64,000 nucleotides of DNA, taken from an uncultured Bacteroidales bacterium. GTDB lineage: Bacteria; Bacteroidota; Bacteroidia; Bacteroidales; CAYFUP01. The DNA lies in assembly GCA_964346235.1 (NCBI GenBank), contig CAYFUP010000001.1, forward strand, positions 5,136 through 69,135, in the 5' to 3' direction. The notes beneath the pieces were generated by a model. It was not told the DNA's origin and did no database searches. It saw only the letters and a program-made list of their open reading frames with translations. Within the stretch, counting starts at the first letter, position 1; the number at the start of each line of letters is the position of its first letter. Of this stretch, positions 9,807-62,613 are shown one piece after another. Made by a program: the position numbers and the translations under genes.

Positions 9807-9855
9807 TTATATAAGATTCATTATTTCAACAGTTTCAAACTATTTCTATCATTTA

Positions 9856-11700: not shown

Positions 11701-11749
11701 ACTTTTTTTCACGAGAATAATTTTAATATAATTCATTGCCTCGCAGCAT

Positions 11750-12496
11750 TTACCAATCTTTGAGTACATTTATTTGCTGGGCTTTGGCTTTTTCTTTTTC
11801 CACTTCTTCTTTTACTTCCCGTTCTTCATTCTCCAAAGCCTGCAGTATTCGTCTGGCATCCTCCTTGGATATTTTTTGTTGCTGATTTTGCCGTTGTTGT
11901 TCTTGCTGTTGTTGTTTCTGTTGTTCCTGGTTGCTGGCTTGTTGACGTTGATTCTGATTCTGTTGATCTTGTTGGCTCTGTTTATCCTGGTTCTTTTGCT
12001 GCTGCTGATTTTGATCCTGGTTTTTATTGTTTTGTTGATTTTGGTTTTTGTTCTGCTGTTTATTTTGCTGCTGTTTTAGTTGCTTCAGGGCAAGCGACAG
12101 ATTGGTCTTTGTCTGCATATCTGCCGGATCATTTCTCAGGGCATGTTTGTATGCTTCAATGCTTTCCTGCAATTTATTCATTTTATAGAAAGCATTGCCC
12201 AGGTTATAATAAGTCTTTGCTTTATCATTTTTACTGGTGTTATTATTCGCAATGGATTCAAATTCTTTCATTGCTTCTTCGTACTTTTCCTGCTTGTAAC
12301 TGGAATTGCCCAGGTTGAAAGTGGCTTCATAAGAATCCGGCTTGTCTTCCAGGGCTTTGCGATACATTACTTCGGCCTCTTCAAAATTTTCTTCCTGGTA
12401 ATCCCTGTTTCCTTTACGGATGTCCTTTCTTTCTTTTTGTCCATAAGAAACCTGCAAAATAAAAAGCAACAATAATATCATCCAGTATGCGCTCAT
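11750..12496 (-). CDS. batC: BatC-like TPR protein with a long Gln/Asn-rich tract
   Basis: 248 aa with a signal/TM segment and TPR repeats (YNLGNAFYK...), followed by QQQNKQQNKNQNQQNN...QQKQQQQEQQRQNQQQK and an acidic C-terminus. Confidence 0.75.
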   Translation of the reverse strand: MSAYWMILLLLFILQVSYGQKERKDIRKGNRDYQEENFEEAEVMYRKALEDKPDSYEATFNLGNSSYKQEKYEEAMKEFESIANNNTSKNDKAKTYYNLGNAFYKMNKLQESIEAYKHALRNDPADMQTKTNLSLALKQLKQQQNKQQNKNQNQQNNKNQDQNQQQQKNQDKQSQQDQQNQNQRQQASNQEQQKQQQQEQQRQNQQQKISKEDARRILQALENEEREVKEEVEKEKAKAQQINVLKDW

Positions 12497-12526
12497 AACT
12501 CAGCTAATTTTAATCATGTTTAACAT

Positions 12527-13567
12527 TCACTTTTCAAAACCACCAAACAAATTTAATTGTTTCAACCATTTATTTTTTCTTTCCAGCACAAAAGCTTCGA
12601 TCACAAGGAAAAACAAAGCAATTCCAACAATCCAGGGAAACTGGTCATCATACTCGGAATAAATTTTCGACTCAATCTCTTTCTTTTCCATTTTATTGAT
12701 TTCATTGAATATGGTGTTTAAACCTATTTCTGCATTGTTGGCACGAATATAGGCTCCATTTCCTTCCAGGGCAATATCCTGCAACATTTTTTCATTGAGT
12801 TTCGAGATCACTGTATTCCCCTGCCTGTCTTTTCTGAATGATTTTGAACCATATCTTCCGCTGACCGGAATTGGGGCTCCTTCAGGCGATCCCATTCCGA
12901 TTGTGTGCACGATAATGTTTTTTTCAGATGCTTTTTTCACCGCCTTCAGTGCATTTCCTTCATGGTTTTCACCGTCCGTAATGATAATCAGGGCTTTATT
13001 AAGCTCACTTTCTGACGAAAAGGATCTGACACCCAGGTCAATGGCCGACCCTATGGCAGTACCCTGTTTCGGAACAATATCCGGATCAATGGTGTTAAGA
13101 AATATCTTTGCTGCCGTGTAATCTGTGGTAATGGGAAGCTGTACATAGGCATCCCCTGCAAAAACGATAAGCCCTACTTTATCATTTTGCAGTTTGCTCA
13201 GCAACCGCGAAATAGCCCTTTTTGATTTCTCAAGCCGGTTGGGTTGTATATCTTCCGCCAGCATGCTGTTTGACACATCCAGTGCTATTACAATTTCCAC
13301 TCCTTTTCTTTTCACTTCCTGCAGTTTTGAACCAAATTGAGGCCTGGCCATGGCAAATATCAAGGCTGTCATGGCCAATAAGGTTAGCATAAATTTCACA
13401 AAAAGCTTGGAATGGGAAGCATCGGGCATGAGTCCTTTTAACAGAAGCGGATTTCCAAAACTTTTTATGGCTCTTTTCCTTAAGCCGGACATGACCCAAT
13501 AAAATATCAGTAATACGGGAATGACTGAAAGTACATATAATATTTCCGGATTTGCAAACCTAAACAT
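12527..13567 (-). CDS. batB: BatB-like von Willebrand factor A domain membrane protein
   Basis: 346 aa with N-terminal TM segments, a VWA MIDAS motif (IALDVSNSM) and a C-terminal TM segment. Confidence 0.85.
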   Translation of the reverse strand: MFRFANPEILYVLSVIPVLLIFYWVMSGLRKRAIKSFGNPLLLKGLMPDASHSKLFVKFMLTLLAMTALIFAMARPQFGSKLQEVKRKGVEIVIALDVSNSMLAEDIQPNRLEKSKRAISRLLSKLQNDKVGLIVFAGDAYVQLPITTDYTAAKIFLNTIDPDIVPKQGTAIGSAIDLGVRSFSSESELNKALIIITDGENHEGNALKAVKKASEKNIIVHTIGMGSPEGAPIPVSGRYGSKSFRKDRQGNTVISKLNEKMLQDIALEGNGAYIRANNAEIGLNTIFNEINKMEKKEIESKIYSEYDDQFPWIVGIALFFLVIEAFVLERKNKWLKQLNLFGGFEK

Positions 13568-13582
13568 AGTCCTCCATTCTAT

Positions 13583-14575
13583 TTAAGGTATTTTTCTCAA
13601 AAGGGTATTTCTCATCAATATATCAATGACTAACAAAATAAATGCCGCAATGGCAAATGGCAAATATTCTTCTTCTTTTTTACTGAATTCTTTTACTTCA
13701 ATTTTCGATTTTTCCAATTGATCGATTTCTTCATAAATATTTTTCAGTTTTTGGTTGTCAGTAGCCCTGAAATATCTGCCATTGGTATAATTGGCAATTT
13801 CGCGAAGCACATCCTCATCAATTTCAACTTCCACATTTCTGAATTGCATTCCAAAAGGGGTTTTTACCGGATATGGTGCAGTACCCCTTGAACCAACCCC
13901 TACAGTATATACCCTTATTCCAAAAGATTGAGCCAGCTCAGCAGCAGTCAGGGGCGCTATGGAGCCTTTGTTATTCACCCCATCTGTAAGCAAAATGACA
14001 ACCTTGCTGATGGCTTTGCTGTCTTTAAGCCTGTTGACCGCATTGGCCAGTCCCAGTCCGATGGCCGTGCCATCCTCAATCATGCCGCTTTCAATGTCTT
14101 TTAACAAATTAATCACCACCGCATGATCGTTGGTCAGGGGTGCCTGGGTGAAGCTTTCTCCGCTGAACACCACAAGACCGATGCGGTCGTTCGGTCTGCC
14201 CGAAATAAAATCGATGGCCACGTCCTTTGATGCCTCAAGCCGGTCAGGTTCAAAATCCTTTGCCAGCATACTGCCGGAGATATCCATGGCAAGTACCACA
14301 TCAATTCCCCTGGTGGTTCTGTTCTCCCAGTTTTCAGATGATTGCGGTCTGGCTATTATGATGATGAGCAAGGCAATGACCATTAAACGGAAAGCAAACA
14401 AGACATGTCTCAGATGTTCCTTATAAGAACGCGGAAGCTTTTTAAATGCCTTTATGGTGGATATCTGGAGACTGGCTTCTCTGTATTTCAGCTTCCAGAT
14501 ATACCATGCAATAATGGGAACAAGGATCAACAATAAGTACAAAAATTCCGGTTTGCCAAATTCTATATTGCTCAT
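13583..14575 (-). CDS. batA: BatA-like von Willebrand factor A domain membrane protein
   Basis: 330 aa with N-terminal TM segments, a VWA MIDAS motif (LAMDISGSM) and a C-terminal TM segment. Confidence 0.85.
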   Translation of the reverse strand: MSNIEFGKPEFLYLLLILVPIIAWYIWKLKYREASLQISTIKAFKKLPRSYKEHLRHVLFAFRLMVIALLIIIIARPQSSENWENRTTRGIDVVLAMDISGSMLAKDFEPDRLEASKDVAIDFISGRPNDRIGLVVFSGESFTQAPLTNDHAVVINLLKDIESGMIEDGTAIGLGLANAVNRLKDSKAISKVVILLTDGVNNKGSIAPLTAAELAQSFGIRVYTVGVGSRGTAPYPVKTPFGMQFRNVEVEIDEDVLREIANYTNGRYFRATDNQKLKNIYEEIDQLEKSKIEVKEFSKKEEEYLPFAIAAFILLVIDILMRNTLLRKIP

Positions 14576-14647
14576 GCTTTACAACTCAATTAATGGTTTA
14601 TCCAACATTCATAATTAATTTCTTTCATGCCCCTAATTATGGTATCT

Positions 14648-15907
14648 TTATTGTTCCTTCTCATTCTCGCCACTTTCTTCATGCCCATTTTGGCTACCTT
14701 TTTCTGTATTTTTTTTATGACCACGTTGATTATCTTTTTCTGTGGTTTTTTTATGACCATTTTGGTCATCTGTTTCTATGGATTTCTCGTGCACATCTTG
14801 GTTGCCTTCTTCTATCTTGTTTTCATGACCATCCTGGCTGCCTTCTTCTGCATTGTTTTTAGTTATAGTTTCCCCTTCTTCTTTCTCATCTTCTGCGTTT
14901 GTTTCAATATATTTGGTTCTTCTCACAAAATTGTAGGCCTGATGAAAGCTTCTGTCATTCTCCTCAGGCAATGGTGTTGCTTTGGCAAATTTCACAAAAT
15001 CAGCCAGTGTAAGCAGTGATTTTAACTCATCAAATGCCTCATTCGGAATATCATGTTTCATCAAAGCCTCTATGATCTCATCCGAAGTCTGTTCCATGGC
15101 ATGCACCTGGTATCTTCCTTCAATATACTTTCTAATGATTTCAGTCAGCAGGGAATAATATTCCTTCAACCTGCCCTGTTGCCATAATTTCTTTTCGCTT
15201 AATGCATTTAATTCTCTTAGCGCAGCCACATGCGGAGGTTCAAGCGGTTTTTGCCTTTTAAATACCGGTTCGTTCTTTTTTCGTTTCTTTATAACAAAAT
15301 ATGCCAGCAAGATGATGAAAACAATAAGCAAACCGATGGCAATGTAAGGCACAAGCTCGGCAAAACTCAGCGGCGCTTCATATGGCCCTTTAATATCGAG
15401 TATTTCAGTCAGGGTATCCACAGGCATGGTATGAACCGTCAATGATAAGGGGCGCGACTGCATGGAGTCTTTCCGGTTGGCCGATTCAACGATAAATTTC
15501 ATCGGAGGCACATAGTGAAAACCACTGTCAAATGATGTCACCAGATAATCTTTTTCGACATGAATCTCCGTGTTTGTAATCCAGGTGGTATCCTTGTCCT
15601 GTTCCTCCAATATTTCAATGGCCCGGGTAATGGTATCTTTGAACTGAGGAAAAAGCACACTAAGATTGGGTGACTGCTTTACATCAATGCGCAAATGCAC
15701 CTGATCACCAACCAATATATTGCTGGAATCAATTTTAGCGGCAATTTCCACCTTTTGTGCATTCATTAATGAGGCAAAAGAAAACATCCACAGGAGCAGA
15801 AGTATCTTTTTGTCCTGAAATTTCTTCAAAATATGGGTTATTTCAATTATAAAGTTGCTTTTCATTTCCGGTTTCAAATCGATTTTATCTGTCTGACCAT
15901 TGGTCAA
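14648..15907 (-). CDS. Bat-operon membrane protein (DUF4381-like position) with five C-terminal 12-aa His-containing repeats
   Basis: 419 aa with a signal-like segment, a central TM segment (LVPYIAIGLLIVFIILLAYFVI) followed by KKRKK, and the tail EEGSQDGHENKI/EEGNQDVHEKSI/ETDDQNGHKKTT/EKDNQRGHKKNT/EKGSQNGHEESG. The true start is uncertain. Confidence 0.6.
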   Translation of the reverse strand: MTNGQTDKIDLKPEMKSNFIIEITHILKKFQDKKILLLLWMFSFASLMNAQKVEIAAKIDSSNILVGDQVHLRIDVKQSPNLSVLFPQFKDTITRAIEILEEQDKDTTWITNTEIHVEKDYLVTSFDSGFHYVPPMKFIVESANRKDSMQSRPLSLTVHTMPVDTLTEILDIKGPYEAPLSFAELVPYIAIGLLIVFIILLAYFVIKKRKKNEPVFKRQKPLEPPHVAALRELNALSEKKLWQQGRLKEYYSLLTEIIRKYIEGRYQVHAMEQTSDEIIEALMKHDIPNEAFDELKSLLTLADFVKFAKATPLPEENDRSFHQAYNFVRRTKYIETNAEDEKEEGETITKNNAEEGSQDGHENKIEEGNQDVHEKSIETDDQNGHKKTTEKDNQRGHKKNTEKGSQNGHEESGENEKEQ

Positions 15908-15951
15908 TTCTTTGATTTTTCTCTCTTCCTTGTTATGCCATAAGAAAACCT

Positions 15952-16836
15952 TTAACTTCTTCTTTTAAACAATGTCATCAGTGGTTTTACATAATCGTCA
16001 TCCGCTTCAATGTCCACCGCGTCAACCCCCGCCTTTTTAAACAGGTAACTGGTACTGCTGCTGGTTTTCTCCCAAAACTCACGGAATGCTTTCCTTACCT
16101 TTTTATTGGAAGAATCAACCCAAATGGGCTGACCGGTTTCTGCATCCATAAGTTTAACCAGGCCTACAGAAGGCAAAGTTGTTTCCCTTTTGTCATATAC
16201 TTTTAATGCCACCACATCATGTTTATTGCCTGCTACCTGCAATGATTTGCTGAAATTCGGCTCGTAATGGTCATCATGATCAATAAAATCAGATATAATA
16301 AAAGCCGTACATCTTTTCTTAACCACATTCGTCAGGTAACGCAGGGGCTCCGATATATCGGTCTCTTTTTCACCCGGCTCAAATTCAATCAATTCCCGGA
16401 TAATCCGAAGAATATGTTTGCGATCCTTTTGAGGGGGAATGAATTTCTCTATTTTATCGGAAAACAGGATTACCCCGATTTTGTCATTGTTTTGGATAGC
16501 GGAAAAAGATAAAACCGCTGCAATTTCCGTTATCACGTTCTTCTTTAGATTTTGTCCGGTTCCAAAATCCCTGGATCCGCTGATATCTACAAGGAGCATT
16601 ACCGTTAACTCCCTTTCTTCTTCAAAGATTTTAATATAGGGATGATTAAACCTTGCCGTCACATTCCAGTCAATGTTACGGATATCATCCCCTACCTGGT
16701 ATTCCCTCACTTCAGAGAATGCCATCCCCCTTCCTTTGAAGGCGCTGTGGTATTCTCCGGCAAATATCTGCCTAGTCAGGCCCCTGGTCTTAATCTCAAC
16801 TTTTCTTACTTTTTTCAGTAATTCTTTCGTTTCCAA
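15952..16836 (-). CDS. DUF58 domain protein (MoxR-associated, VWA-like)
   Basis: 294 aa with G.H.S.FKG.G..F.E.R.Y..GDD.R.IDW..TAR and DISGS. It sits in the canonical position downstream of MoxR. Confidence 0.85.
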   Translation of the reverse strand: METKELLKKVRKVEIKTRGLTRQIFAGEYHSAFKGRGMAFSEVREYQVGDDIRNIDWNVTARFNHPYIKIFEEERELTVMLLVDISGSRDFGTGQNLKKNVITEIAAVLSFSAIQNNDKIGVILFSDKIEKFIPPQKDRKHILRIIRELIEFEPGEKETDISEPLRYLTNVVKKRCTAFIISDFIDHDDHYEPNFSKSLQVAGNKHDVVALKVYDKRETTLPSVGLVKLMDAETGQPIWVDSSNKKVRKAFREFWEKTSSSTSYLFKKAGVDAVDIEADDDYVKPLMTLFKRRS

Positions 16837-16839
16837 AGC

Positions 16840-17253
16840 CTAATTATTTTTTCTGGTCACCACCGTAAAAAACCAATCGCGTTTCTTCATCCTAATTTCA
16901 AATTTTTCCCCGTTCTTTTCCGCATTCCATGTTGAATCCGATGTGTTTACATATTCCCGGTTCAGTTTATCCTGAATGTCACTCAAATATGTATAATCAT
17001 ACATGAGCACAAAATATTCACATCGTCCCTCATCATTCATTACATATATCAATGTTTTATCGCCTCTGGAATCAATATATTTTAGAAACTTTACCCTTCC
17101 GTTATCGAATTCCTTATCAAAATGAAAATCCGTTTTTTGCTTTTCTAATTTTTCTCTGATGCTGCTGCCTGTTTCCCCAATAAAATTTAAATCGCTGGGG
17201 TCATAGTTGAACGATAATAAAAGAAAAAGCCGTATAATGATGATTAATTTCAT
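16840..17253 (-). CDS. Small secreted hypothetical protein inserted between moxR and the DUF58 gene
   Basis: The ORF track gives 16840..17286. The ATG at 17253 gives MKLIIIIRLFLLLSF..., which is signal-like. I recognise no motif. Confidence 0.5.
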   Translation of the reverse strand: MKLIIIIRLFLLLSFNYDPSDLNFIGETGSSIREKLEKQKTDFHFDKEFDNGRVKFLKYIDSRGDKTLIYVMNDEGRCEYFVLMYDYTYLSDIQDKLNREYVNTSDSTWNAEKNGEKFEIRMKKRDWFFTVVTRKNN

Positions 17254-17292
17254 CACGGGATTTTTATATAATATATTTAAGAACAAATTCCA

Positions 17293-18288
17293 TTACGGCA
17301 CTTCTATGACGTTGAGGATTTCCGTAATGATGTCTTCTGTGATGATGTTTTCCGCTTCGGCTTCATAAGACAGGCCAATCCGGTGCCGCATCACATCATG
17401 GGCCACTGCCCGCACATCTTCGGGGATAACATATCCCCTTCGTTTTATGAATGCATATGACTTGGCAGCTCGAGCCAGGTTGATGCTGGCACGTGGTGAA
17501 GCCCCATAGTTGATCATATGCTGAAATTTCTCAAGTTCGTATTTCTCCGGAAAACGGGTAGAGAAAACAATGTCCACAATATATTTCTCTATTTTTTCAT
17601 CCAGGTAAACATCATTGACTACCTGTCTGGCTCTGACAATGTCTTCCGGGTTTATCACCTGGTTGGCACGGGGGAATTCTTTGGCGAGGTTTTGCCTGAT
17701 GATAAGGTTTTCTTCCTCTTTTTCAGGATAAGAAATCACCACCTTAAGCATAAACCTGTCCACTTGAGCTTCTGGCAACGGGTAGGTACCTTCCTGTTCA
17801 ATGGGATTTTGAGTGGCCATGACCAGGAAAGGTTCCTCCAGGGGAAACGTTTCGGCTCCAATGGTAACCTGACGTTCCTGCATGGCTTCCAGTAAAGCAC
17901 TCTGAACTTTTGCAGGAGACCGGTTGATTTCATCCGCCAGAATAAAGTTGGCAAAAATGGGTCCTTTCTTCACGATGAATTCTTCGTTCTTCTGGCTGTA
18001 GATTAGCGTCCCGAGCAAGTCAGCCGGCAACAAGTCAGGCGTAAACTGGATACGATTAAATTTTGCATTGATACTGGTGGACAAGGTATTAATGGCCAGT
18101 GTTTTTGCCAGTCCGGGCACCCCTTCCAGCAGCATATGGCCGTTCGACAGTAATCCGATGAGCAGGCTGTTAAGCAGGTGTTTTTGACCCACGATGACCT
18201 TGTTCATCTCGATGGTAATCATTTCAACAAAAGAGCTTTCCTTTTGAATCAGATCATTGAGTGCCTTAATGTTTTCCGTTTCATTCAT
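17293..18288 (-). CDS. moxR: MoxR-family AAA+ ATPase
   Basis: The ORF runs to 18345. The ATG at 18288 (MNETENIKALN...) matches the usual MoxR N-terminus. Walker A is GVPGLAKT, Walker B ILADEINR, with a typical MoxR C-terminus. Confidence 0.92.
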   Translation of the reverse strand: MNETENIKALNDLIQKESSFVEMITIEMNKVIVGQKHLLNSLLIGLLSNGHMLLEGVPGLAKTLAINTLSTSINAKFNRIQFTPDLLPADLLGTLIYSQKNEEFIVKKGPIFANFILADEINRSPAKVQSALLEAMQERQVTIGAETFPLEEPFLVMATQNPIEQEGTYPLPEAQVDRFMLKVVISYPEKEEENLIIRQNLAKEFPRANQVINPEDIVRARQVVNDVYLDEKIEKYIVDIVFSTRFPEKYELEKFQHMINYGASPRASINLARAAKSYAFIKRRGYVIPEDVRAVAHDVMRHRIGLSYEAEAENIITEDIITEILNVIEVP

Positions 18289-39628: not shown

Positions 39629-40093
<465 letters not shown>

Positions 40094-40102
40094 CTATTAA
40101 TA

Positions 40103-42118
40103 TTAAAAATTATTCTTATCCATTAAAGGTTTATACTTCTTTCCACCACCGGTAAAACCGGCATTATTGCTGTAAAATTCCACAAATGTCAAACGCAGGG
40201 GGTGAACAAACGCCCCCAATCCTGACATAAAAATGTTTATGCTGTGGCCGAACAACAAGATGATAATAAAAATCAAGTGGCTTACCACAGGAATATTTCC
40301 ACTCATATTGACAGCCAGATCGTTGAACACAAAACCCAGGATGGCACTTGAGATGCCAAGGGCAAACAATCGGATATAGGAAAGTATATCCCCGAGCACC
40401 CCGGTCACCATATTATACGTATCCCAAATGCCTGTGCCGACGTTGATTAAAGGATTTTTTCTGATATCATTCAGGATAAATATCGCTACCCCACTGATGC
40501 CCAATATTACGTATAATAATGACTGAAAAGACTGCTGGTCAATCGCCGCATTTTGCCTTAACAAGTAAAGCAGTCCACCCCCGATGGCCAGCAATATCCA
40601 ACCTATGGTGGACACCGCTGCATGAAATCCTTCCTGTTTAATTTGATTGGCTGCTTTAATAAACCAGCCCAATAATATCTGGATTACCCCAAAAACAAGG
40701 GAGAGGTTGAACATCTGATTGGGATCCAATAACATATGTCTGAACTTATTTATCCATTGGTAATCAGCCTCTGTAAACTTAACAATTGATTCGGAATATT
40801 TCTCAAAATTTTCTTCAGAAAGCAAATCTTCCAGCTTTCCTTCAAAATTGGACTTTGTTTCGAAATGGGTACCTTTTATGGATTCAATTTTTGTAAGAAC
40901 ATGTTCAGGCACATTTTCCTGTTGAACATATTCCATCGTCTGGTTGGTCACCTTATAGCCGGTATCGATCAGATTTATACCAAAAAAGGTTCCGGTTATT
41001 GCCCCAAACAATACAGTGGCCAGACCCAAAAATGAAATCAGGTAAGCAATTCTTTTTGATTTCAGGTCCTTGATTCGCGATGCAAAATAAAGCGCTGCCC
41101 CTATCATTAGTAATCCGTATCCTGCATCTCCCAGACAAAATCCGAAAAACAACATAAAAAAAGGAGCAAAAAACGGCGTTAAATCTATTTCTCCATACTT
41201 AGGCAAGGAATATAGCTCCCCTACGGGTTCAAACAACCTGGCAAATCGGTTATTTTTCAAAAGGACCGGTGGTTTATCTCCCTTTTCCGGTTCTCCTTTC
41301 ACGGCCAAAGCATTGGTTTCTGCCAAATAGGAGGTAAGACTGGATTCTTTTGATTCCGGGATCCATCCTTCCAGCAGCATCACTTTATCCTCAGCCTTTT
41401 TCTCAGTGTTTTCAACCGCCAGCTGAAAATCCGTTTTGCTTTCGATTTTATTGATGGTATGCTGCAATACATCCAAATATTTCGAAGCGTATTCATCAAG
41501 CTCCTTTTCAAGTTCTTCTTTATGATTCTCAATGGAAGTTTTCTCCAGTTGATATTCCGAGACCGGCTTTTCTGGTTTTTTAACCTCATCAGCATTTTCC
41601 AATTCAAACCCATCATCGGCTTTTTGGAAGGCAACAAAATAAAGGGATTCCCCAATTTTATTGACTTCCTCAATATAATGCTTTTCCTTCCATGCAGGAT
41701 CAAAATTCTTTTCAGAACATATAAAAAACCTTATTTTGACTCCTTGTTTTTCAAGCTTCTCGATGGTTTCATTTGAAAATTCCCCCCAGGGTTCGGCCAA
41801 TAAGATTTGTTTCTTTACATTCCCCAACTGTTGCTGCAGCCCCTCTATCTCATTTCTTTTCTCAGTAACTTCTTCAAGTATTTTCAAACCATCAGCTTTG
41901 TCTGTAGCAACCGGATTAAAATCAACGTCACGCTTTTTAAGAAATTTGATGGTTTCCTTAATGCGTTGAATGGTTTGAAATGATTGCCTGAGCTCCTCAC
42001 TAATTTCTTCCTTCTTTTCGACAATATGTAATACGCCTGCATCCTGTAAACCTTTCAGAAAAGACATATGGTCCTCATGATAGGTCAAAAAAGCGTATTT
42101 CTTCATTGGTACAATCAT
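40103..42118 (-). CDS. ntpI: V-type ATPase subunit I (a-subunit)
   Basis: 671 aa with a soluble coiled N-terminal half and a multi-TM C-terminal half ending ...LRLTFVEF. Operon position supports the call. Confidence 0.88.
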   Translation of the reverse strand: MIVPMKKYAFLTYHEDHMSFLKGLQDAGVLHIVEKKEEISEELRQSFQTIQRIKETIKFLKKRDVDFNPVATDKADGLKILEEVTEKRNEIEGLQQQLGNVKKQILLAEPWGEFSNETIEKLEKQGVKIRFFICSEKNFDPAWKEKHYIEEVNKIGESLYFVAFQKADDGFELENADEVKKPEKPVSEYQLEKTSIENHKEELEKELDEYASKYLDVLQHTINKIESKTDFQLAVENTEKKAEDKVMLLEGWIPESKESSLTSYLAETNALAVKGEPEKGDKPPVLLKNNRFARLFEPVGELYSLPKYGEIDLTPFFAPFFMLFFGFCLGDAGYGLLMIGAALYFASRIKDLKSKRIAYLISFLGLATVLFGAITGTFFGINLIDTGYKVTNQTMEYVQQENVPEHVLTKIESIKGTHFETKSNFEGKLEDLLSEENFEKYSESIVKFTEADYQWINKFRHMLLDPNQMFNLSLVFGVIQILLGWFIKAANQIKQEGFHAAVSTIGWILLAIGGGLLYLLRQNAAIDQQSFQSLLYVILGISGVAIFILNDIRKNPLINVGTGIWDTYNMVTGVLGDILSYIRLFALGISSAILGFVFNDLAVNMSGNIPVVSHLIFIIILLFGHSINIFMSGLGAFVHPLRLTFVEFYSNNAGFTGGGKKYKPLMDKNNF

Positions 42119-42119
42119 C

Positions 42120-42719
42120 TTAGGCTGCCTCCGCTTTTTGTTGCTTTGATTTAACGATTTTTTGTGCCGATTTGGAAAGGTTTTCTTCGTCTTCCAAAAA
42201 GCGTTTTATTTTTCTGATGGCATTTTCATAATCCGGTATCTGAACTTTTTCATAAAGATTCACTTTCTGGGTGGTCTTCTTTCTGGCATAATTCAGTATT
42301 TCCATTTTTTTGGTAAAAATATCCCGTTCAATGGCTATTTTCAAAAGTTCCTTTAATATCTCTATGCCATCCGGAAACCATGAAGGGTTATTGAACTGGC
42401 TGAATGGTTTTACCTCAAAATAGACGTCCTCATAGACAGGGGTATTGACACCGGCAATCTTTTTCTTGGAATATTTCACTTCTTTTACCTGCACCAACGA
42501 TCTATCGAACTCTGCCCATAAATTTGTAATGTTATCATACTCCGCCATCTTTTCATTCAACTGTCTGTCAAGCATGTTAGCCCGGTCCTTTGCCTTCTTT
42601 ACTTCCACCCGCAAAGCAGCTTCCTTACTCTTCAGAATAGGAAGTGCTTTTTGCCGCATGGCAAGCTGTTTATTGATTTGTTGAAGCGCTGTTTTATTAA
42701 ATTGAACTTTAATGGCCAT
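42120..42719 (-). CDS. ntpD: V-type ATPase subunit D
   Basis: 199 aa, a long helical protein (TALQQINKQLAMRQKALPILKSKEAALR). Operon position supports the call. Confidence 0.88.
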   Translation of the reverse strand: MAIKVQFNKTALQQINKQLAMRQKALPILKSKEAALRVEVKKAKDRANMLDRQLNEKMAEYDNITNLWAEFDRSLVQVKEVKYSKKKIAGVNTPVYEDVYFEVKPFSQFNNPSWFPDGIEILKELLKIAIERDIFTKKMEILNYARKKTTQKVNLYEKVQIPDYENAIRKIKRFLEDEENLSKSAQKIVKSKQQKAEAA

Positions 42720-42780
42720 ATTAAACTGCTGTTGTTATTGGTTTTTTAATGCTATCCGTTGAATTTATTAATTGGAGATC

Positions 42781-44103
42781 CTAATTCTTCGGCCAGTACT
42801 TGTCCACCATCTCCTGCTTGATACCCACTTCTGCCACATCAAAATGCTTATTAAACAGTTGCCATCCGATATCAAGCATTTTTTCCGCGTCAATATTCAC
42901 ATCAATGGCCAAAAGTTGCTCGGAATACTCCTGGGCAAAATCCAGGGTACGTTTGTCATATTCGGTAAGGTCAAACCCATTCTCCAGCTTTGTCCGGGCA
43001 TTGGCAGCATCTGCATACAGCCTCACTGCTGCATTCATCACCTGCGGATGATCTTCCCTGGTCTGCTTACCAATCACCAACTGCTTCAAACGCGACAAAC
43101 TCCTGAATGGATCCACAATGACTTTGCCAATATCCGTATCCTGGCGCAGGAACAACTGACCTTCAGTAATATACCCAGTATTATCGGGAATGGCATGGGT
43201 AATGTCCCCACCGGATAAGGTTGTCACAGCCACAATGGTAATGGACCCCCCATCAGGAAACTGCGCAGCTTTTTCATAAATCTTCGCCAAATCGCTATAA
43301 AGGGAGCCTGGCATACTGTCTTTTGAAGGAATCTGGTCCATACGGTTTGAAACAATGCTCAATGCATCCGCATAGAGCGTCATATCTGTCAGAAGTACAA
43401 GCACCTTTTCCTGCTTACCGGCAGCAAAATATTCTGCTGCAGTCAGCGCCATATCTGGCACCAGCAAACGTTCCACAGAAGAATCTTCGGTGGTATTCAC
43501 AAAACTGATGATACGATCAAGGGCACCGGCACTGTCGAAAAGATTCTTATAATAAAGGTAATCGTCGTTGGTCAATCCCATTCCTCCGAGGATGATTTTA
43601 TCCGCTTTGGCCCTGAGTGCCACCATGGCCATCACCTGGTTAAAAGGCTGATCAGGATCAGCAAAGAAAGGTATTTTTTGTCCCGTCACCAGGGAGTTGT
43701 TCAGGTCTATGCCCGCAATTCCGGTTGGGATGAACTGGGAAGGCTGTTCACGGCGTACCGGGTTCACTGTTGGACCGCCAATTTCAGTTTCATCTCCCTC
43801 AATTTCCGTACCCCCATCGATTGGGTCACCATAGGCATTAAAGAACCTTCCTGCCAGTTCATCGCTCACCTTTAAGGAAGGAGCTTTCCCGAGAAAAACC
43901 ACTTCGGCATTGGTGGGAATGCCCTCTGTCCCTGAAAATACCTGCAATGTAACATTATCCCCGATGATTTTTACCACCTGGGAAAGCCTGCCATGCACAA
44001 TAGCAAGCTCATCATAACCCACACCCGTTGCCTTAAGCGAACAAGTAGCCTTGGTAATCTGGGATATTTTCTTATATACCTTTTGAAATGCTTGTGTCTC
44101 CAT
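42781..44103 (-). CDS. ntpB: V-type ATPase subunit B
   Basis: 440 aa, a typical non-catalytic B subunit (GQKIPFFAD..., LTDMT.YA.ALS). Confidence 0.93.
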   Translation of the reverse strand: METQAFQKVYKKISQITKATCSLKATGVGYDELAIVHGRLSQVVKIIGDNVTLQVFSGTEGIPTNAEVVFLGKAPSLKVSDELAGRFFNAYGDPIDGGTEIEGDETEIGGPTVNPVRREQPSQFIPTGIAGIDLNNSLVTGQKIPFFADPDQPFNQVMAMVALRAKADKIILGGMGLTNDDYLYYKNLFDSAGALDRIISFVNTTEDSSVERLLVPDMALTAAEYFAAGKQEKVLVLLTDMTLYADALSIVSNRMDQIPSKDSMPGSLYSDLAKIYEKAAQFPDGGSITIVAVTTLSGGDITHAIPDNTGYITEGQLFLRQDTDIGKVIVDPFRSLSRLKQLVIGKQTREDHPQVMNAAVRLYADAANARTKLENGFDLTEYDKRTLDFAQEYSEQLLAIDVNIDAEKMLDIGWQLFNKHFDVAEVGIKQEMVDKYWPKN

Positions 44104-44107
44104 TATG

Positions 44108-45877
44108 TTATTGTTTCTTTCTTTCGTCTATAATTTTGTTTAATTCTTTCTCATAGCCATTAAAGTCATCCAACTGAAAATCAGAATAGTTCATCTGTTT
44201 TAACTGGTTTATCACCCTTTTGAAATATTTGTTGACTTCTTCAAAGTTTTCAAAATCGAACTCAGTACGATAAATGTCCAGCACCAATTTCATCATATAT
44301 TTTTGACGCTCCAGGGGAGAAGAATAATCAATGTCGTCAAAGGCATCCTGCTGCAGAATAACGAAATCAATGACTTCTGACTTCCAGAAAGTGATATGAT
44401 AATCCACAGGTACCCCATCATCCCCAAGAATGTTAATTTGCTCAGAAGCCTCCTTTCCTCTTCTGAGAATATTCTTCACCAGGTTAATCTGATCAATCCA
44501 GTCCGGGGACACCTTTTCATCAATATATTCTTTAAACTCATCATATTCAATATATTTCGAATAGCTATCAATGGGATTGATGGCAGGATAACGTTTACTG
44601 TCGGCCCGGGCCTGTTCAAGCGCATAGAAGCAACGGGCTGCTTTTTTGGTGGACTCCGTTACGGGTTCTTTCAGGTTACCACCGGCAGGTGATACGGTAC
44701 CGATAAAGGTAACCGAACCGGTTTCCCCGTTGTTCAGATAAACATAACCGGCGCGTGAATAGAAGTTCGATATGATGGCAGGCAGGTCCATCGGAAAAGC
44801 ATCCTGTCCGGGCAATTCCTCCATTCTGTTTGACATTTCCCTAAGCGCCTGCGCCCAACGCGATGTAGAATCCGCCAACATCAGCACCCTCAGGCCCATG
44901 GCGCGGTAATACTCCGAAATGGTCATGGCCGTGTAAACCGAGGCTTCACGGGCTGCCACCGGCATGTTAGAGGTGTTGGCAATGATGGTGGTTCGTTCAA
45001 TCAGTTTTCTTCCCGTACGCGGGTCATCGAGTTCAGGAAACTCTTTAAAAATCTCTACGACCTCGTTTGCCCTTTCACCGCAAGCTGCAATCACAACAAT
45101 ATCGGCTTCCGCCTGTTTCGATAAAGCATGCTGCAATACGGTCTTGCCCGAACCGAAGGGTCCAGGGATAAATCCGGTGCCTCCTTCCACCATCGGATTC
45201 AGCGAATCAATCGTCCGTATGCCGGTTTCAAGAAGCTTGAAAGGACGGGGCTTGTCTTTATAAACTTTGATGGGTACTTTTACCGGCCATTTTTGTATCA
45301 TGGTCACCGGTATCTCTTTATTGTCTTTATCAATCAGTGTAGCAATGGTATCCTTAGCAGGGTAACTTCCTTCCGGCTTAATGTCCTTGATGAAATATTT
45401 TCCTGAAAAACTGAAAGGCACCATGATTTTGTGCGGCACCCAGTTTTCCTTCACTTCACCCAGCCATGAACCGGGGACAACCTCATCACCTTCTTTCACC
45501 ATGGGTGTAAAGTCCCATTTCTTCTCTTCATTAATGGCGGCTGTGTATTCTCCTCTTTTAAGGAAAACCCCCTCCATGGTGTCCAGGTCGTTTTGCAGTC
45601 CGTCATAATTTCGTTGCAATAATCCGGGACCAAGTGATACTTCAAGCATATGTCCCATGAATTCCACCTCATCATGCACCCTGAGTCTTCTGGTATTTTC
45701 AAAAACCTGAACATATACATAGGTTTCAAAAACTTTAATTACCTCAGCCATTAATCGCTCATCTCGCAATTTGATGTAGGCAATCTCGTTTTGTTGTACC
45801 GGTCCGTCTACCTCAACCGATACCAGGTTGGCGATTATCCCGGTTACTTTACCTTTTGTTTTATTGTTGTTATCCAT
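44108..45877 (-). CDS. ntpA: V-type ATPase catalytic subunit A
   Basis: 589 aa with Walker A GPFGSGKTV, the ADSTSRWA..LRE motif and the non-homologous insert typical of A subunits. Confidence 0.95.
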   Translation of the reverse strand: MDNNNKTKGKVTGIIANLVSVEVDGPVQQNEIAYIKLRDERLMAEVIKVFETYVYVQVFENTRRLRVHDEVEFMGHMLEVSLGPGLLQRNYDGLQNDLDTMEGVFLKRGEYTAAINEEKKWDFTPMVKEGDEVVPGSWLGEVKENWVPHKIMVPFSFSGKYFIKDIKPEGSYPAKDTIATLIDKDNKEIPVTMIQKWPVKVPIKVYKDKPRPFKLLETGIRTIDSLNPMVEGGTGFIPGPFGSGKTVLQHALSKQAEADIVVIAACGERANEVVEIFKEFPELDDPRTGRKLIERTTIIANTSNMPVAAREASVYTAMTISEYYRAMGLRVLMLADSTSRWAQALREMSNRMEELPGQDAFPMDLPAIISNFYSRAGYVYLNNGETGSVTFIGTVSPAGGNLKEPVTESTKKAARCFYALEQARADSKRYPAINPIDSYSKYIEYDEFKEYIDEKVSPDWIDQINLVKNILRRGKEASEQINILGDDGVPVDYHITFWKSEVIDFVILQQDAFDDIDYSSPLERQKYMMKLVLDIYRTEFDFENFEEVNKYFKRVINQLKQMNYSDFQLDDFNGYEKELNKIIDERKKQ

Positions 45878-46733
45878 TTATAATAAATTCTTTTGGAAAT
45901 TCGTAACTATTTTGCAGCTCATTGACAATGCTTTCAAATGCCTGTCTGCCTTTTTCAGCATCCAGGTTTATCCATCTTTCAATGATATGTAATTTAATGA
46001 TATAAGCCAAAACTTTCTCGATGGTGAAATAATGAAAAGTAATTAAACCATTCAGGTAATTCCATCTGACCAAATCAATTTGCTTTTCTCTCTCAAGCAG
46101 GTTTTGATTTTCATAAGCATTTAATACGGGTATCAGGTAATCCAAATCCTGAGTAAGTCCGAAATCCTTGGATTTTGACGTCTTAATGGTATGAGCGACA
46201 TCATCATTCCCGATAATCTTTTCCTCCAGGTTAAATTCATGTCTTTTGGCATTCTGGCCCGTAATGAAGTTCTTTAAATTCCTTTCAAAATCAAACCAAC
46301 GATAAACAAATGCATTTTCTACCTTCAGAAGAATAAACTGGTAAAAATATTCTGTCAGCTGATCTTCAAAAGAAAGATTCGGATTTAAAGGCATTTCATT
46401 GTTATAATGAACGATAAAACTGTGGATGTATTCCAGTGGTGTATTGGGAAATTCCTGGGAAGGCCCCTGCTCTTTAGTGTTTAATTCATATTCCAGGACT
46501 TCTTTCGAAAAAATGCCACGATCATCGAAAGGTTTATCATTCTTCTTTAATAGATTCATCAAGTTTTTATTATCATAAGGCAGGAAAAACAATTCGACCA
46601 ATCCATAGTCTTTGGGCGTAACTTCAGGTTTCAGGTTTTCCTGGAAGTCTTTTATGTTAAAAGGCAGTTTTGTTTGCTGAAAAACAAGTTCAGGCAAACT
46701 TGATACAAGATAATAATAACTTGTTCCCGGCAT
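45870..46733 (-). CDS. DUF2764-family protein (putative V-ATPase C/d-like subunit)
   Basis: 287 aa in the conserved second position of Bacteroidota V-ATPase operons. It overlaps the ntpA start by 8 nt. Confidence 0.7.
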   Translation of the reverse strand: MPGTSYYYLVSSLPELVFQQTKLPFNIKDFQENLKPEVTPKDYGLVELFFLPYDNKNLMNLLKKNDKPFDDRGIFSKEVLEYELNTKEQGPSQEFPNTPLEYIHSFIVHYNNEMPLNPNLSFEDQLTEYFYQFILLKVENAFVYRWFDFERNLKNFITGQNAKRHEFNLEEKIIGNDDVAHTIKTSKSKDFGLTQDLDYLIPVLNAYENQNLLEREKQIDLVRWNYLNGLITFHYFTIEKVLAYIIKLHIIERWINLDAEKGRQAFESIVNELQNSYEFPKEFIING

Positions 46734-46744
46734 ATCATTGGTTT

Positions 46745-47362
46745 TTATTCTTCGTCAAAAAGTAATTCAGCGGTTTTGGGTCTGAGGTAGGATTTAAAAA
46801 GATTTTGAAAATCTTCATCTGCGAAGCTTATGACATAAGAACCTTCTTTTGGACCAATTTTAAATCCGCCTTTCATGCTGGAATCAAATTCTACGGACAA
46901 TTTCCCATTGAGCAGCTCATTGGCTTTTCCTTTAAAATATTCCCCCAATGCTTTTTCTTCTTTCTCCGGGAGCAGGATAGAGAGTGAAATGGGATCATTG
47001 CTTTGAGAATCCCAATTCTTAATGGCCGTTTCGATGATGTTTTTCACAAAATCATTATCATTAAAAGCCTCATCCACAGATGATTCAACAAATTTCGCGG
47101 TAATCAGTTCTGTGATTTCCTGCTTTAGTGCCCGAATAGACTGATGTGAAGCCTGCTTTACCTCCGATTCAATTCTGCCCCGGTATTCTTTGGCTTTGCT
47201 TTCCGCCTCTTTTTGAATTTGAGAAGCCTTCTCCTCGGCTTCTTTTACCATCTTATCCGCTTTCTCTTTGGCATCGTTGATTATTTGTTCAGCTTCCTCA
47301 TTGGCTTTTGACACACCCTCATTGTAAAGCTTTTCAGTTAGTTCTTGTAGTTTTTGTTGCAT
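46745..47362 (-). CDS. ntpE: V-type ATPase subunit E
   Basis: The ORF runs to 47401; the ATG at 47362 gives MQQKLQELTEKLYNEGVSKANEEAEQIINDAKEKA, a typical E-subunit helical N-terminus. Confidence 0.85.
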   Translation of the reverse strand: MQQKLQELTEKLYNEGVSKANEEAEQIINDAKEKADKMVKEAEEKASQIQKEAESKAKEYRGRIESEVKQASHQSIRALKQEITELITAKFVESSVDEAFNDNDFVKNIIETAIKNWDSQSNDPISLSILLPEKEEKALGEYFKGKANELLNGKLSVEFDSSMKGGFKIGPKEGSYVISFADEDFQNLFKSYLRPKTAELLFDEE

Positions 47363-59432: not shown

Positions 59433-61232
59433 ATGGAATCGAATCTAATAGGATTGACGAGTATTTTATTGCTCGGCATTGGCGCACAATGGATTGCCTG
59501 GAGGGTGAAATTTCCCTCTATCCTTTTCTTGCTGCTCTTTGGGTTCATTGCGGGACCGGTAACTGGTTTCCTGAATCCCTCTGAGTTGCTCGGCAATTTT
59601 CTCTACCCTTTTGTTTCGGTTTCCATAGCGGTCATATTGTTTGAAGGCGGACTCACCCTCAGGTTGAAAGAACTTAGAACCATTGGGAGAACAGTGCTTT
59701 CGCTGGTTACCATCGGAGTACTGGTCACCTGGGCCATCTCAACAGCAGCTGCTTATTATTTGCTAAACCTTAGTTTCCAGGTTTCCCTGCTGCTGGGTTC
59801 TATCCTTGTCGTAACCGGTCCCACCGTTATCGGGCCACTGCTAAGACATATCAAACCCGTGGGGAAGTCCGCCAATGTGCTAAAATGGGAAGGCATCGTC
59901 ATTGATCCCATCGGGGTTTTGCTTGCCGTGGTCGTTTTTGATGCCATATTAATCGGCAAACTCCAGGAAGCAGGAACAGTCGTCATGCTGGGAATCGCCA
60001 AAACACTTATATTTGGAAGCTTAATTGGAATCGGATTCGCCTGGTTGCTGCTGATGCTTATCAGAAAGTACTGGATACCAGACTACTTACAGGAAACAGT
60101 CACCCTGGCCACAGTGGTCGCTGCCTTCCTGATATCTGATTTAATTCAAAAAGAATCCGGACTGGTGGCCGCAACCCTTATGGGCATCATGCTTGACAAT
60201 CAAAAGCTTGTCGCAGTTAAACACATTGCAGAATTTAAAGAAAACCTTCGCATCCTAATCATTTCCAGTTTATTTATCATTTTGGCTGCTCAAATAGATA
60301 TCGAAAGCATAAAACAATTATCCTTTAACAGCATTACGTTTCTTTTCGTTTTGATTTTCCTGGCCAGGCCCCTTTCTGTATTTATTTCAACCTACCGGTC
60401 TGGGCTTAAACTCAATGAAAAAATATTTCTCTCATGGATGGCCCCGCGCGGCATCGTTGCAGCCGCCATATCCTCCATTTTTGCCCTGGAATTATCAAAA
60501 GCCGGCATGGTACAAACGGATTTACTGGTGCCCATTGTCTTTATCGTTATCGTTGGAACAGTTCTCATTTATGGCATCACCGCCATGCCCCTTGCCCGGC
60601 GGTTAAAGCTTTCGCAGACAGAACCGCAGGGCGTTTTATTTTTGGGGGCACATCCCTGGGCGGTCGAGATGGCCAGTCATCTTAAATCGAAAGGATTCCA
60701 TGTGGCCATGATTGATACCAACAGAAACAGTATCAACAAAGCCAAAATGCAAGGTTTGCCTGCTTACAACGGCAATGTGATGTCTAGCAATGTGATCGAC
60801 AACGTTGATCTCAGTGGCATAGGCAGAATGGTAGCGCTGACCTCCAATGATGAAGCCAATTCCCTCGGAGTGCTCCATCTCGAAGACCTGTTCAGCAGAG
60901 AGGAACTATATCAATTGCCAACGGTGAACGAACAAAAACCGGAGAATAAAGACAAAAGGCCTCAGCATCTGCATGGCCGGTTCCTTTTCGGCAAAAATTA
61001 TAACTTTTACCATATCAATAACCTATACCAGGAAGGGTATGTGATTAAAACAACAAGGCTGACAGATGAATTTGATTATCAAGCCTTTAAAGCTTATTAT
61101 GATAATTCATTGATTCCGATGTTTATCATAAAAGAGAATAAAAAGTTCATTCCTGTTACCATAGATTTTAAAATGGACCCTAATCCGGGAGATTACATCA
61201 TTGCCATGGTTTATGACAAGACTGATAAATAA
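59433..61232 (+). CDS. CPA1-family Na+/H+ (cation:proton) antiporter with C-terminal cytoplasmic regulatory domain
   Basis: 599 aa with ~12 TM segments, LFEGGL and PRGIVAAA motifs, then a ~190-aa soluble tail (GAHPWAVEMASHLKSKGFHVAMIDTN, Rossmann/TrkA-N-like). Confidence 0.85.
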   Translation: MESNLIGLTSILLLGIGAQWIAWRVKFPSILFLLLFGFIAGPVTGFLNPSELLGNFLYPFVSVSIAVILFEGGLTLRLKELRTIGRTVLSLVTIGVLVTWAISTAAAYYLLNLSFQVSLLLGSILVVTGPTVIGPLLRHIKPVGKSANVLKWEGIVIDPIGVLLAVVVFDAILIGKLQEAGTVVMLGIAKTLIFGSLIGIGFAWLLLMLIRKYWIPDYLQETVTLATVVAAFLISDLIQKESGLVAATLMGIMLDNQKLVAVKHIAEFKENLRILIISSLFIILAAQIDIESIKQLSFNSITFLFVLIFLARPLSVFISTYRSGLKLNEKIFLSWMAPRGIVAAAISSIFALELSKAGMVQTDLLVPIVFIVIVGTVLIYGITAMPLARRLKLSQTEPQGVLFLGAHPWAVEMASHLKSKGFHVAMIDTNRNSINKAKMQGLPAYNGNVMSSNVIDNVDLSGIGRMVALTSNDEANSLGVLHLEDLFSREELYQLPTVNEQKPENKDKRPQHLHGRFLFGKNYNFYHINNLYQEGYVIKTTRLTDEFDYQAFKAYYDNSLIPMFIIKENKKFIPVTIDFKMDPNPGDYIIAMVYDKTDK

Positions 61233-61334
61233 TGGCTTTTAGTCATATAAAAAAAGAAAAACAACTTTTCAAAAACCATCTATTGATTTTATTGTTACTT
61301 ACAATGTAAGTTTAACCAAAAAATCTTAAAAAAA

Positions 61335-61811
61335 ATGAAAAACAAGACATTAGTTTCGATATGTGCCCTTTTTTTAATGCTTTTTGCCCTGAGCAACAAA
61401 TCATTTGCTCATTGTGAAATTCCTTGTGGAATATATGGAGACTCTATGCGAATTGACATGATTGAGGAACATATCCGGACCATTGAAAAGTCAATGGACC
61501 AGATCATTGTACTTTCAGAAGAGGACGATGAAGATTATAACCAGATTGTTCGCTGGGTTGTGAATAAAGAAGAACATGCCAAAAAGATTCAGGATATTGT
61601 GAGCCAGTATTTCCTTCATCAAAGAATCAAACCGGTTGATCCTGGACAGGGTGAAATGTATGAAAAGTACATCAAACGTTTATCCTTGCTTCATGAATTG
61701 ATGATTTATGCCATGAATGCAAAGCAAACCACTGACATGCAATTCATTGAAAAAATGAGAAATACCCTCAGGGAGTTCGAAGACAGCTATTTCCACACCC
61801 ATGAACATTAA
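61335..61811 (+). CDS. sodN: Nickel-containing superoxide dismutase (NiSOD) with a 25-aa signal-peptide-like leader
   Basis: The nickel-hook motif HCEIPCGIYGD follows directly after MKNKTLVSICALFLMLFALSNKSFA. The four-helix-bundle-length body ends in HTHEH. Confidence 0.85.
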   Translation: MKNKTLVSICALFLMLFALSNKSFAHCEIPCGIYGDSMRIDMIEEHIRTIEKSMDQIIVLSEEDDEDYNQIVRWVVNKEEHAKKIQDIVSQYFLHQRIKPVDPGQGEMYEKYIKRLSLLHELMIYAMNAKQTTDMQFIEKMRNTLREFEDSYFHTHEH

Positions 61812-62136: not shown

Positions 62137-62613
62137 CTAATAATCCAGCGTAATTATCCTGCCGTCAACGAAATTAAACATTTTCTTTTTGTCAGCCAGC
62201 TCCACCCCGTCAATCAGGTAAGCTTCATCGTATCCAGCGACTTTCAAACAGGTCGGACAAACCATTATCTCTACATTTTCATTGGAAATCAGCTCGTCCA
62301 GTTGTTCTTTCAGGGATGGAAAATGTCGATGGGTTACCTCCTTCGCACTGTTTATAACCAAATTTGGTGCTTCAATGTCAAGGTAAATCAATACCTTCTT
62401 ATCTTCTGCCATAATGGAAGCCATTTTGAGCGGCATTAGTACCTTGTGGGCATCATTTTCACCACCGCTGATGTGAATCAACACACCATCTTCTTTTTTT
62501 TCAGGTTGAAGTACTGCAGCATTTTCTCCTGGCTCTGAGGCTTTATTCTCAGGGTTTTGAAAAGCACTCGAAGCCAAAAACATTATTAATAATGCAAAAA
62601 CTAAATTTCTCAT
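62137..62613 (-). CDS. Secreted DsrE/DsrF-like family protein
   Basis: 158 aa with a signal peptide and the pattern VLIHISGG..D.HKV.M.L.MA......V.IYLD...P.LV.....EIMVCP.C. The family call is tentative. Confidence 0.45.
   Translation of the reverse strand: MRNLVFALLIMFLASSAFQNPENKASEPGENAAVLQPEKKEDGVLIHISGGENDAHKVLMPLKMASIMAEDKKVLIYLDIEAPNLVINSAKEVTHRHFPSLKEQLDELISNENVEIMVCPTCLKVAGYDEAYLIDGVELADKKKMFNFVDGRIITLDY

Follow-up and report, generated by a model that had tools for sequence, protein, structure and literature searches.

A predicted Sec-exported nickel superoxide dismutase with no linked sodX gene in an uncultured Bacteroidales bacterium, and its signal-peptide-bearing relatives

A 64-kb stretch of DNA from an uncultured Bacteroidales bacterium (contig CAYFUP010000001.1; 39.7% G+C, with a gene content typical for Bacteroidota), hereafter called the window, carries a sodN-like gene for a 158-aa nickel superoxide dismutase (NiSOD) precursor. 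According to the open reading frame (ORF) list and the sequence, the gene occupies 61335..61811 on the plus strand, from ATG to TAA with the stop codon included. The precursor starts with a 25-aa leader, MKNKTLVSICALFLMLFALSNKSFA, and continues as HCEIPCGIYGDSMR...SYFHTHEH to the C-terminus. Four features were placed on it, all on the plus strand: a predicted Sec-type signal peptide covering residues 1-25 (61335..61409), called from its features and conservation, with a predicted type I signal peptidase (SPase I) site at A25|H26; the nickel hook HCEIPCGIYGD (61410..61442; precursor residues 26-36, mature residues 1-11), in which His1, Cys2, Cys6 and Tyr9 are present and the codon of His26 lies at 61410-61412; the predicted mature enzyme of 133 aa (61410..61808), consisting of the hook and then a four-helix bundle; and the HTHEH tail of residues 154-158 (61794..61808), which ends a conserved ...YFHxHxH. 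The His of a NiSOD hook must be the free N-terminal residue to bind nickel, and the textbook enzyme is cytoplasmic and needs its own protease, SodX, for maturation. The comparisons described here suggest that this NiSOD is probably exported by its signal peptide and matured by SPase I.

The protein is a genuine, divergent member of the NiSOD family. The Pfam profile Sod_Ni (PF09055) matched residues 23-155 over profile positions 3-126 of 127 with 103.5 bits against a cutoff of 25 (E=1.5e-29), and the hook aligned with HCDLPCGVYDP of the Streptomyces NiSOD 1q0d. In a 52-sequence alignment (A1), H26, C27, P30, C31, G32 and I33 were invariant and Y34 was conserved in at least 90% of the sequences, so the protein keeps each of the classical hook residues His1, Cys2, Pro5, Cys6, Gly7 and Tyr9. 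The mature protein has no cysteine outside the hook. When the whole protein was compared with the PDB NiSOD by phmmer, the match (E=0.31) came through the hook alone, and a fold comparison was therefore needed to confirm the family. An AlphaFold2 (AF2) model made from a 52-sequence alignment had a mean predicted local distance difference test score (pLDDT) of 92.2 and a predicted template modelling score (pTM) of 0.79, and consisted of an N-terminal helix (residues 4-18), the hook loop and helices at 36-61, 68-97, 103-131 and 136-153. The top 15 PDB matches of this model in Foldseek were all Streptomyces NiSOD (probability 0.99-1.00, target-normalised template modelling score 0.67-0.75, 15-20% identity), and the remaining matches listed were mostly generic helical bundles with lower scores.

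The leader has the three regions of a Sec-type signal peptide: an n-region, MKNK, with K2 and K4; an h-region, TLVSICALFLMLFAL, which is a 15-residue hydrophobic stretch; and a c-region, SNKSFA. Its net charge was +2 over the first 8 residues, and its best 10-residue Kyte-Doolittle mean was 2.95. The same measure was 2.66-2.99 for the leaders of Escherichia coli OmpA, PhoA and SodC, and 0.84 for the 14-aa Streptomyces propeptide MLSRLFAPKVKVSA, read from genomic loci. Ser stands at -3 of the predicted cleavage site, Ala at -1 and His, not Pro, at +1; the -3/-1 pattern alone does not discriminate, since the classical propeptide ends small-x-small too. Other exported proteins encoded in the window have similar N-termini.

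A set of 120 close homologues, the closest set obtained and 61-100% identical overall, was then compared with the window protein. A signal peptide stands directly before the hook His in 116 of them, the other four being N-terminally truncated gene calls. In all 116 full-length leaders the hydrophobic core reached at least 2.2, the -1 residue was A or G and the -3 residue was S, A, T, G or V; the n-region charge was positive in 111. These leaders are 22-27 aa long and variable in sequence, with a mean identity of 27% against 73% for the first 120 mature residues. Leaders that differ in sequence and share a physicochemical pattern are consistent with substrates of the general Sec and SPase I machinery. 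In the classical propeptide it is the sequence that is conserved: of 120 actinobacterial proteins, 58 have MLSRLFAPKVKVSA or MFTRLFAPKVKVSA, as expected for the substrate of a dedicated peptidase. The recurrence of the leader across homologues means that the feature is not due to chance, and this evolutionary pattern is a stronger argument for a predicted signal peptide than the leader features themselves. The original prediction had described a NiSOD with an intact nickel hook behind a 25-residue leader (basic n-region, hydrophobic core, S-F-A), a cleavage junction directly before the hook His, and a His-rich HTHEH ending. The Sod_Ni match, the hook residues and the NiSOD fold bear out the first of these, the feature scores and the homologues agree with the leader as described, the same junction recurs in the 116 close homologues, and the ending is present in the sequence.

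The closest named relatives of the protein among the matches listed were from Sunxiuqinia, Marinilabilia, Roseimarinus, Draconibacterium and Tangfeifania (Bacteroidales/Marinilabiliales). When 1.84 billion cluster representatives (50% identity) were searched exhaustively with HMMER, 866 matched at E<=0.001, of which 476 also passed E<=1e-10. The hook was found in 134 of the best 150 of the 866, and 118 of these 134 had a signal peptide directly before the His. At E<=1e-10 the clade comprises at least 598 species-representative genome matches, 2023 clusters at 90% identity and 476 clusters at 50% identity. Gene neighbourhoods were collected at 84 related loci, namely the best 80 of the at least 598 species-representative matches and four loci of close homologues, and the junction of signal peptide and HC was seen at about 80 of the 84. 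The best 80 genomes fall into at least 14 phylum-level groups, as labelled: Bacteroidota (many orders), Planctomycetota, Ignavibacteriales (Ignavibacteriota), Calditrichota, Zixibacteria, WOR-3, KSB1, Omnitrophota, Lentisphaeria, Verrucomicrobiota, Acidobacteriota, Thermodesulfobacteriota, Deferribacterales, and two metagenome-assembled genomes (MAGs) labelled Bacillota and Eubacteriales. The phylogenetic spread of signal-peptide-bearing sodN, which had been put forward as a check, is therefore wide. With the same junction across loci and representatives, the trait belongs to a large clade and not to this gene alone; the signal-peptide design is the norm of a very large NiSOD clade, in which the window gene is an ordinary member.

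Two departures from this design were seen among the relatives. A Saprospiraceae/Chitinophagales subgroup (L026 9972-10499, L045 9788-10402, L078 9857-10402, L080 5766-6305, P0128 and P0132) has an extra spacer of about 20-27 aa (e.g. ...NKIALLEKMIASIELGDD) between the signal peptide and the His. The -1 residue there is D, V or P, unsuited to signal peptidase I, so that a second cleavage would be needed; no shared neighbouring peptidase was seen at the subgroup loci. In P0173, P0175, P0196, P0209 and P0227, hydrophobic N-termini are followed by Pro/Ala-rich spacers that end ...APV or ...AVV before the His, and several of these homologues are much longer (281-302 aa). They may represent another type of targeting or processing, or be of eukaryotic origin.

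At least two His residues were counted in the last 10 residues of all 120 close homologues, of 42 of 99 full-length representatives and of none of 120 classical actinobacterial NiSODs. The tail was modelled by AF2 with lower confidence (mean 72). An up-down four-helix bundle puts both termini at the same end, so the His-rich tail may plausibly help to capture nickel close to the hook. A hidden Markov model (HMM) search for NikR over the sodN loci found it only in L004, L005 and L006. L004 (2103-5562) and L005 (1872-5331) hold, in this order, NikR, a periplasmic binding protein, a FecCD permease, an ABC ATPase and sodN; the Sunxiuqinia locus L006 (10583-13361) holds, again in order, sodN, NikR, a TonB-dependent receptor and a thioredoxin-like protein, the last with its own signal peptide and a WCSWC (CxxC) motif. 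The linkage to NikR and nickel transport in these relatives supports nickel dependence of sodN, and the gene order of L006 hints at nickel import across the outer membrane and at a periplasmic thiol reductant that would keep Cys2 and Cys6 reduced. L004 and L005 also have, 5.5 kb downstream, a gene for desulfoferrodoxin (superoxide reductase).

Several of these observations would also suit a protein that is exported and processed and has its main role in periplasmic nickel binding, buffering or delivery through hook and tail: the tail is universal among close homologues and absent from classical NiSODs, some relatives lie within clusters of NikR and nickel-transport genes, and the protein scores under the sodN equivalog cutoff. 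However, members of the clade keep the whole catalytic hook, Tyr9 and Pro5 among its residues, with little or no variation, although plain nickel binding would have no need of them; the protein also has the bundle fold of NiSOD, and linkage to NikR is equally expected for a nickel-dependent enzyme. A carrier or buffering role is thus unlikely as the main function.

Maturation by a SodX-like peptidase encoded elsewhere in the genome was weighed against the sodX searches. The sodN loci of Streptomyces and Nakamurella (n=3) served as a positive control, and in all three the classical sodN has a divergent sodX gene (133-167 aa, Peptidase_S24/S26, GPSM.PT motif) immediately upstream. When 5965 ORFs of at least 50 aa from the window and 90 loci were searched with a SodX HMM at E<=10, the only matches were the three control sodX genes; a sodX-like gene was found neither in the 64-kb window nor within about 10 kb of sodN at the 84 related loci. 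Of the 52 putative window genes, 25 were scanned with Pfam, every small unassigned one among them, and none showed a Peptidase_S24/S26 domain. A search for the S26 motif (G.S[ML].P[TNS] and GD[NH]) matched the three control genes and one 428-aa ORF in a Lentisphaeria MAG (L049, 12350-13636, plus strand), about 2 kb downstream of sodN and without a SodX HMM match; its length is too great for a SodX, and it may encode LepB or match by chance. The leader could still be a propeptide or membrane tether that such a peptidase removes, leaving the enzyme in the cytoplasm or at its face of the membrane, like the enzymes of Streptomyces and cyanobacteria: SodX belongs to the signal-peptidase superfamily, the classical propeptide likewise ends small-x-small (V-S-A/V-R-A), and the view of the source genome spans 64 kb. 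Against this stand the recovery of all three control genes by the same search that found no sodX-like ORF in the window or at the 84 loci, and the contrast between propeptides of 14 aa, weakly hydrophobic and conserved, and leaders of 20-28 aa, strongly hydrophobic and variable. Processing by a distant SodX is accordingly given little credence, somewhat less than a carrier role.

Two further readings are scarcely credible. Translation from the in-frame ATG at codon 15 would give a cytoplasmic enzyme with an 11-aa leader, MLFALSNKSFA, which is about as long as the classical propeptide and superficially like MLSRLFAPKVKVSA, but most homologues lack a Met there (e.g. P0003 and P0004), and an MK..K start, a hydrophobic N-terminus and the leader length are kept over 116 homologues and over many phyla, which would be unexpected if this part were untranslated; the internal start was ruled out on these grounds. 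A lipoprotein, or a protein secreted past the outer membrane (e.g. by the type IX secretion system) and not soluble in the periplasm, might be suspected from the Cys one residue past the predicted cleavage site and from the many surface proteins that Bacteroidota export. However, His occupies the -1 position of Cys27 and Ile that of Cys10, so that neither Cys follows a lipobox, lipidation of Cys27 would destroy the hook, and the 133-aa mature protein is all Sod_Ni bundle, without a C-terminal sorting domain. Lipoprotein and twin-arginine (Tat) export were both rejected, as the leader has neither a lipobox nor an RR motif; an RR-type motif occurred in 1 of 270 family leaders.

Several points weigh against export and SPase I maturation of an active NiSOD. 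The protein scored 38.7 bits with the sodN equivalog TIGR02753, below the cutoff of 90, and its identity to the solved Streptomyces enzyme is just 15-20%, so that superoxide dismutase (SOD) activity is an extrapolation. The signal-peptide call was made from hand-computed features and conservation. With two actinobacterial sequences as its basis, the SodX HMM may miss a very divergent peptidase, and with 64 kb of the source genome searched, sodX may lie elsewhere. NikR was not found in the window, and no recognisable nickel-uptake gene lies beside its sodN. The chemistry poses problems too: a pair of catalytic thiolates would sit in a compartment that is normally oxidising, and Cu and Zn would compete for the hook.

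Under the favoured reading of Sec export and SPase I maturation, the N-terminal signal peptide would target the 158-aa precursor, which would cross the inner membrane unfolded. The housekeeping type I signal peptidase would cleave after Ser-Phe-Ala25 and make His26 the new N-terminus, and a dedicated SodX peptidase would not be required. The hook could close on nickel only after this cleavage, through the free His1 alpha-amine, the Cys2 amide and the thiolates of Cys2 and Cys6; because the hook needs the freed His1 alpha-amine, nickel would be inserted after cleavage and outside the cytoplasm. The folded four-helix-bundle enzyme, presumably a hexamer by analogy, would remove superoxide in the periplasm in a role like that of Cu,Zn-SodC.

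The sodN gene is preceded by a gene with Na_H_Exchanger and TrkA_N domains (59433-61232, plus strand) and faces a convergent DsrE-family gene (62137-62613, minus strand; 158 aa), which matched its Pfam profile with 27.7 bits against a cutoff of 22.7 and whose product has its own signal-peptide-like N-terminus. The neighbours named in the original prediction, a Na+/H+ antiporter and a secreted DsrE-like protein, are those identified here, and its statement that no sodX-like gene flanks sodN held in the HMM and Pfam scans of the window. Metagenome contigs, among them one from a microbial-mat metagenome, carry an identical sodN protein with the same neighbours, DsrE included. When the 818 proteins encoded within 6 kb of sodN in 85 sources (the 84 related loci and the window) were clustered all-against-all, no conserved partner gene was found; the largest cluster, a product of lineage synteny, covered 9 of 85 loci. 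By this test there is no functional link between sodN and its DsrE-like and Na+/H+ exchanger neighbours, and the DsrE gene is not kept beside sodN in other taxa.

A perfect 15-bp palindrome, ACTTACA-A-TGTAAGT (7-1-7), lies at 61297..61311, starting 38 nt and ending 23 nt before the ATG. It is a possible operator whose membership in the sodN feature is doubtful; a palindrome scan did not find it kept upstream of sodN at 81 other loci, and for that reason no operator is claimed. Scans for sigma-70-like promoters and terminators gave no match associated with the sodN gene, which is expected because Bacteroidota promoters differ. Seven Draconibacterium-type loci (L019, L023, L024, L027, L032, L039 and L041) have in common the motif TTGTTATA(C/A)AG-N-(C/A)AGT(T/A)ATTAA about 30-60 nt 5' of sodN, and the window has a related sequence, TTATTGTTAC, at 61290-61298; the motif may belong to a promoter or serve a regulator. 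Elsewhere in the window, a gene run on the minus strand at about 9036-18288, with a TPR/SH3 protein and several membrane proteins, may be an operon of the Bat (Bacteroides aerotolerance) type that includes a MoxR-type ATPase, to judge from gene order, N-termini and domains; domain scans there covered the TPR/SH3 gene and one ORF, which gave no match. Seven co-directional genes at 39629-47362 (minus strand) resemble a V-type ATPase operon by their sizes and N-termini only; together with the Na+/H+ exchanger beside sodN, such an operon would fit a saline or mat-dwelling organism.

A broader proposal, which we put forward tentatively and consider doubtful at present, is that a signal peptide with SPase I maturation is the majority and perhaps the ancestral mode of NiSOD, with the cytoplasmic SodN/SodX pair as an internalised derivative. 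On this view SodX is a soluble homologue of signal peptidase in the S24/S26 group, and the 14-aa propeptide, with its V-S-A ending still in place, would be the vestige of a signal peptide. As corollaries, a nickel-thiolate redox enzyme would be routinely assembled and active in the periplasm, and its metalation there would proceed without a cytoplasmic chaperone, possibly helped by the His-rich tail and by periplasmic thiol reductants.

In reviews from 2025, Ni-SOD still figures as an enzyme of Streptomycetota and cyanobacteria. Boden et al. (2021), who name sodX as the NiSOD maturation protease, report sodN from several phyla, bacteroidetes and planctomycetes among them. Experimental work on a periplasmic NiSOD was not found in the literature searched, and the only mention of a Sod_Ni signal peptide in the literature searched was in PMC12537917 ('signal-strapping', Nat Commun 2025); older NiSOD papers may comment on such leaders. 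In that article the signal peptide MTRLLTATLALMFTASIASA|H of the Sod_Ni protein WP_230780104.1 of Roseiconus lacunae was used as a search bait, and BLAST with it 'retrieved many Ni-superoxide dismutases'; the accessible portion of the article does not address the localisation, SodX independence, metalation or distribution of such NiSODs. As far as could be determined, signal-peptide NiSODs are visible in databases and have been noticed in passing, and are otherwise uncharacterised.

A clade with signal-peptide-bearing sodN contradicts the textbook account of NiSOD biogenesis and is easy to test. The comparative data suggest that in a much larger clade ordinary secretion replaces SodX and that the enzyme resides outside the cytoplasm. 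If this is true, there would be a second type of periplasmic SOD beside SodC, and the question would arise by what means a nickel site and a pair of catalytic thiolates persist in an oxidising compartment that contains Cu and Zn. Active recombinant NiSOD could then be obtained simply by expressing it in the periplasm, with no need for SodX, and signal peptidase and SodX would be linked in evolution.

The nearest known system is the SodN/SodX pair of Streptomyces (PDB 1T6U, 1Q0D), which has in common with the window protein the Pfam family, the hook H-C-x-x-P-C-G-x-Y and the four-helix-bundle fold. In both, a leader has to be removed for the His to become residue 1, and small residues stand at -3 and -1. 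The Streptomyces protein has a conserved 14-aa propeptide and an adjacent S24/S26 sodX, whereas the window gene encodes a hydrophobic, variable 25-aa leader and has no adjacent sodX. The classical mature protein is 117 aa long, compared to 133 aa for the window protein with its acidic loop and His-rich tail; the Streptomyces enzyme is cytoplasmic, and the window protein is predicted to be periplasmic. The cyanobacterial SodN/SodX pair is likewise a NiSOD system of a Gram-negative cell in which N-terminal processing is needed for activity. The activity of SodN from Prochlorococcus marinus MIT9313 in E. coli reportedly depended on co-expression of its cognate SodX, as work by Eitinger in 2004 is said to have found. 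Cyanobacterial SodN thus has a cognate SodX, whereas the window sodN has a general-secretion leader and no linked sodX.

Superoxide cannot cross the inner membrane, and in the periplasm it is countered by SodC. The Cu,Zn-SodC of Gram-negative bacteria offers a functional analogy, with a Sec signal peptide, a periplasmic location and a presumed role against superoxide like the one proposed here. Its fold (a beta-barrel) and its metals are unrelated, and the N-terminus made by cleavage of SodC is no metal ligand. In secreted metalloproteins such as the lytic polysaccharide monooxygenases (LPMOs), CopC and DUF4198 proteins, according to PMC12537917, signal peptidase I does create a His1 whose amine and imidazole bind metal. 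These proteins have a histidine brace without thiolates, which binds mostly Cu and in DUF4198 Ni; the window protein, unlike them, has the N2S2 (+His) hook of NiSOD on a helical bundle. The Sod_Ni protein of Roseiconus lacunae (Planctomycetota), as given in the same article, has a signal peptide ending ...SIASA directly before the His, and is of the same design as the window protein.

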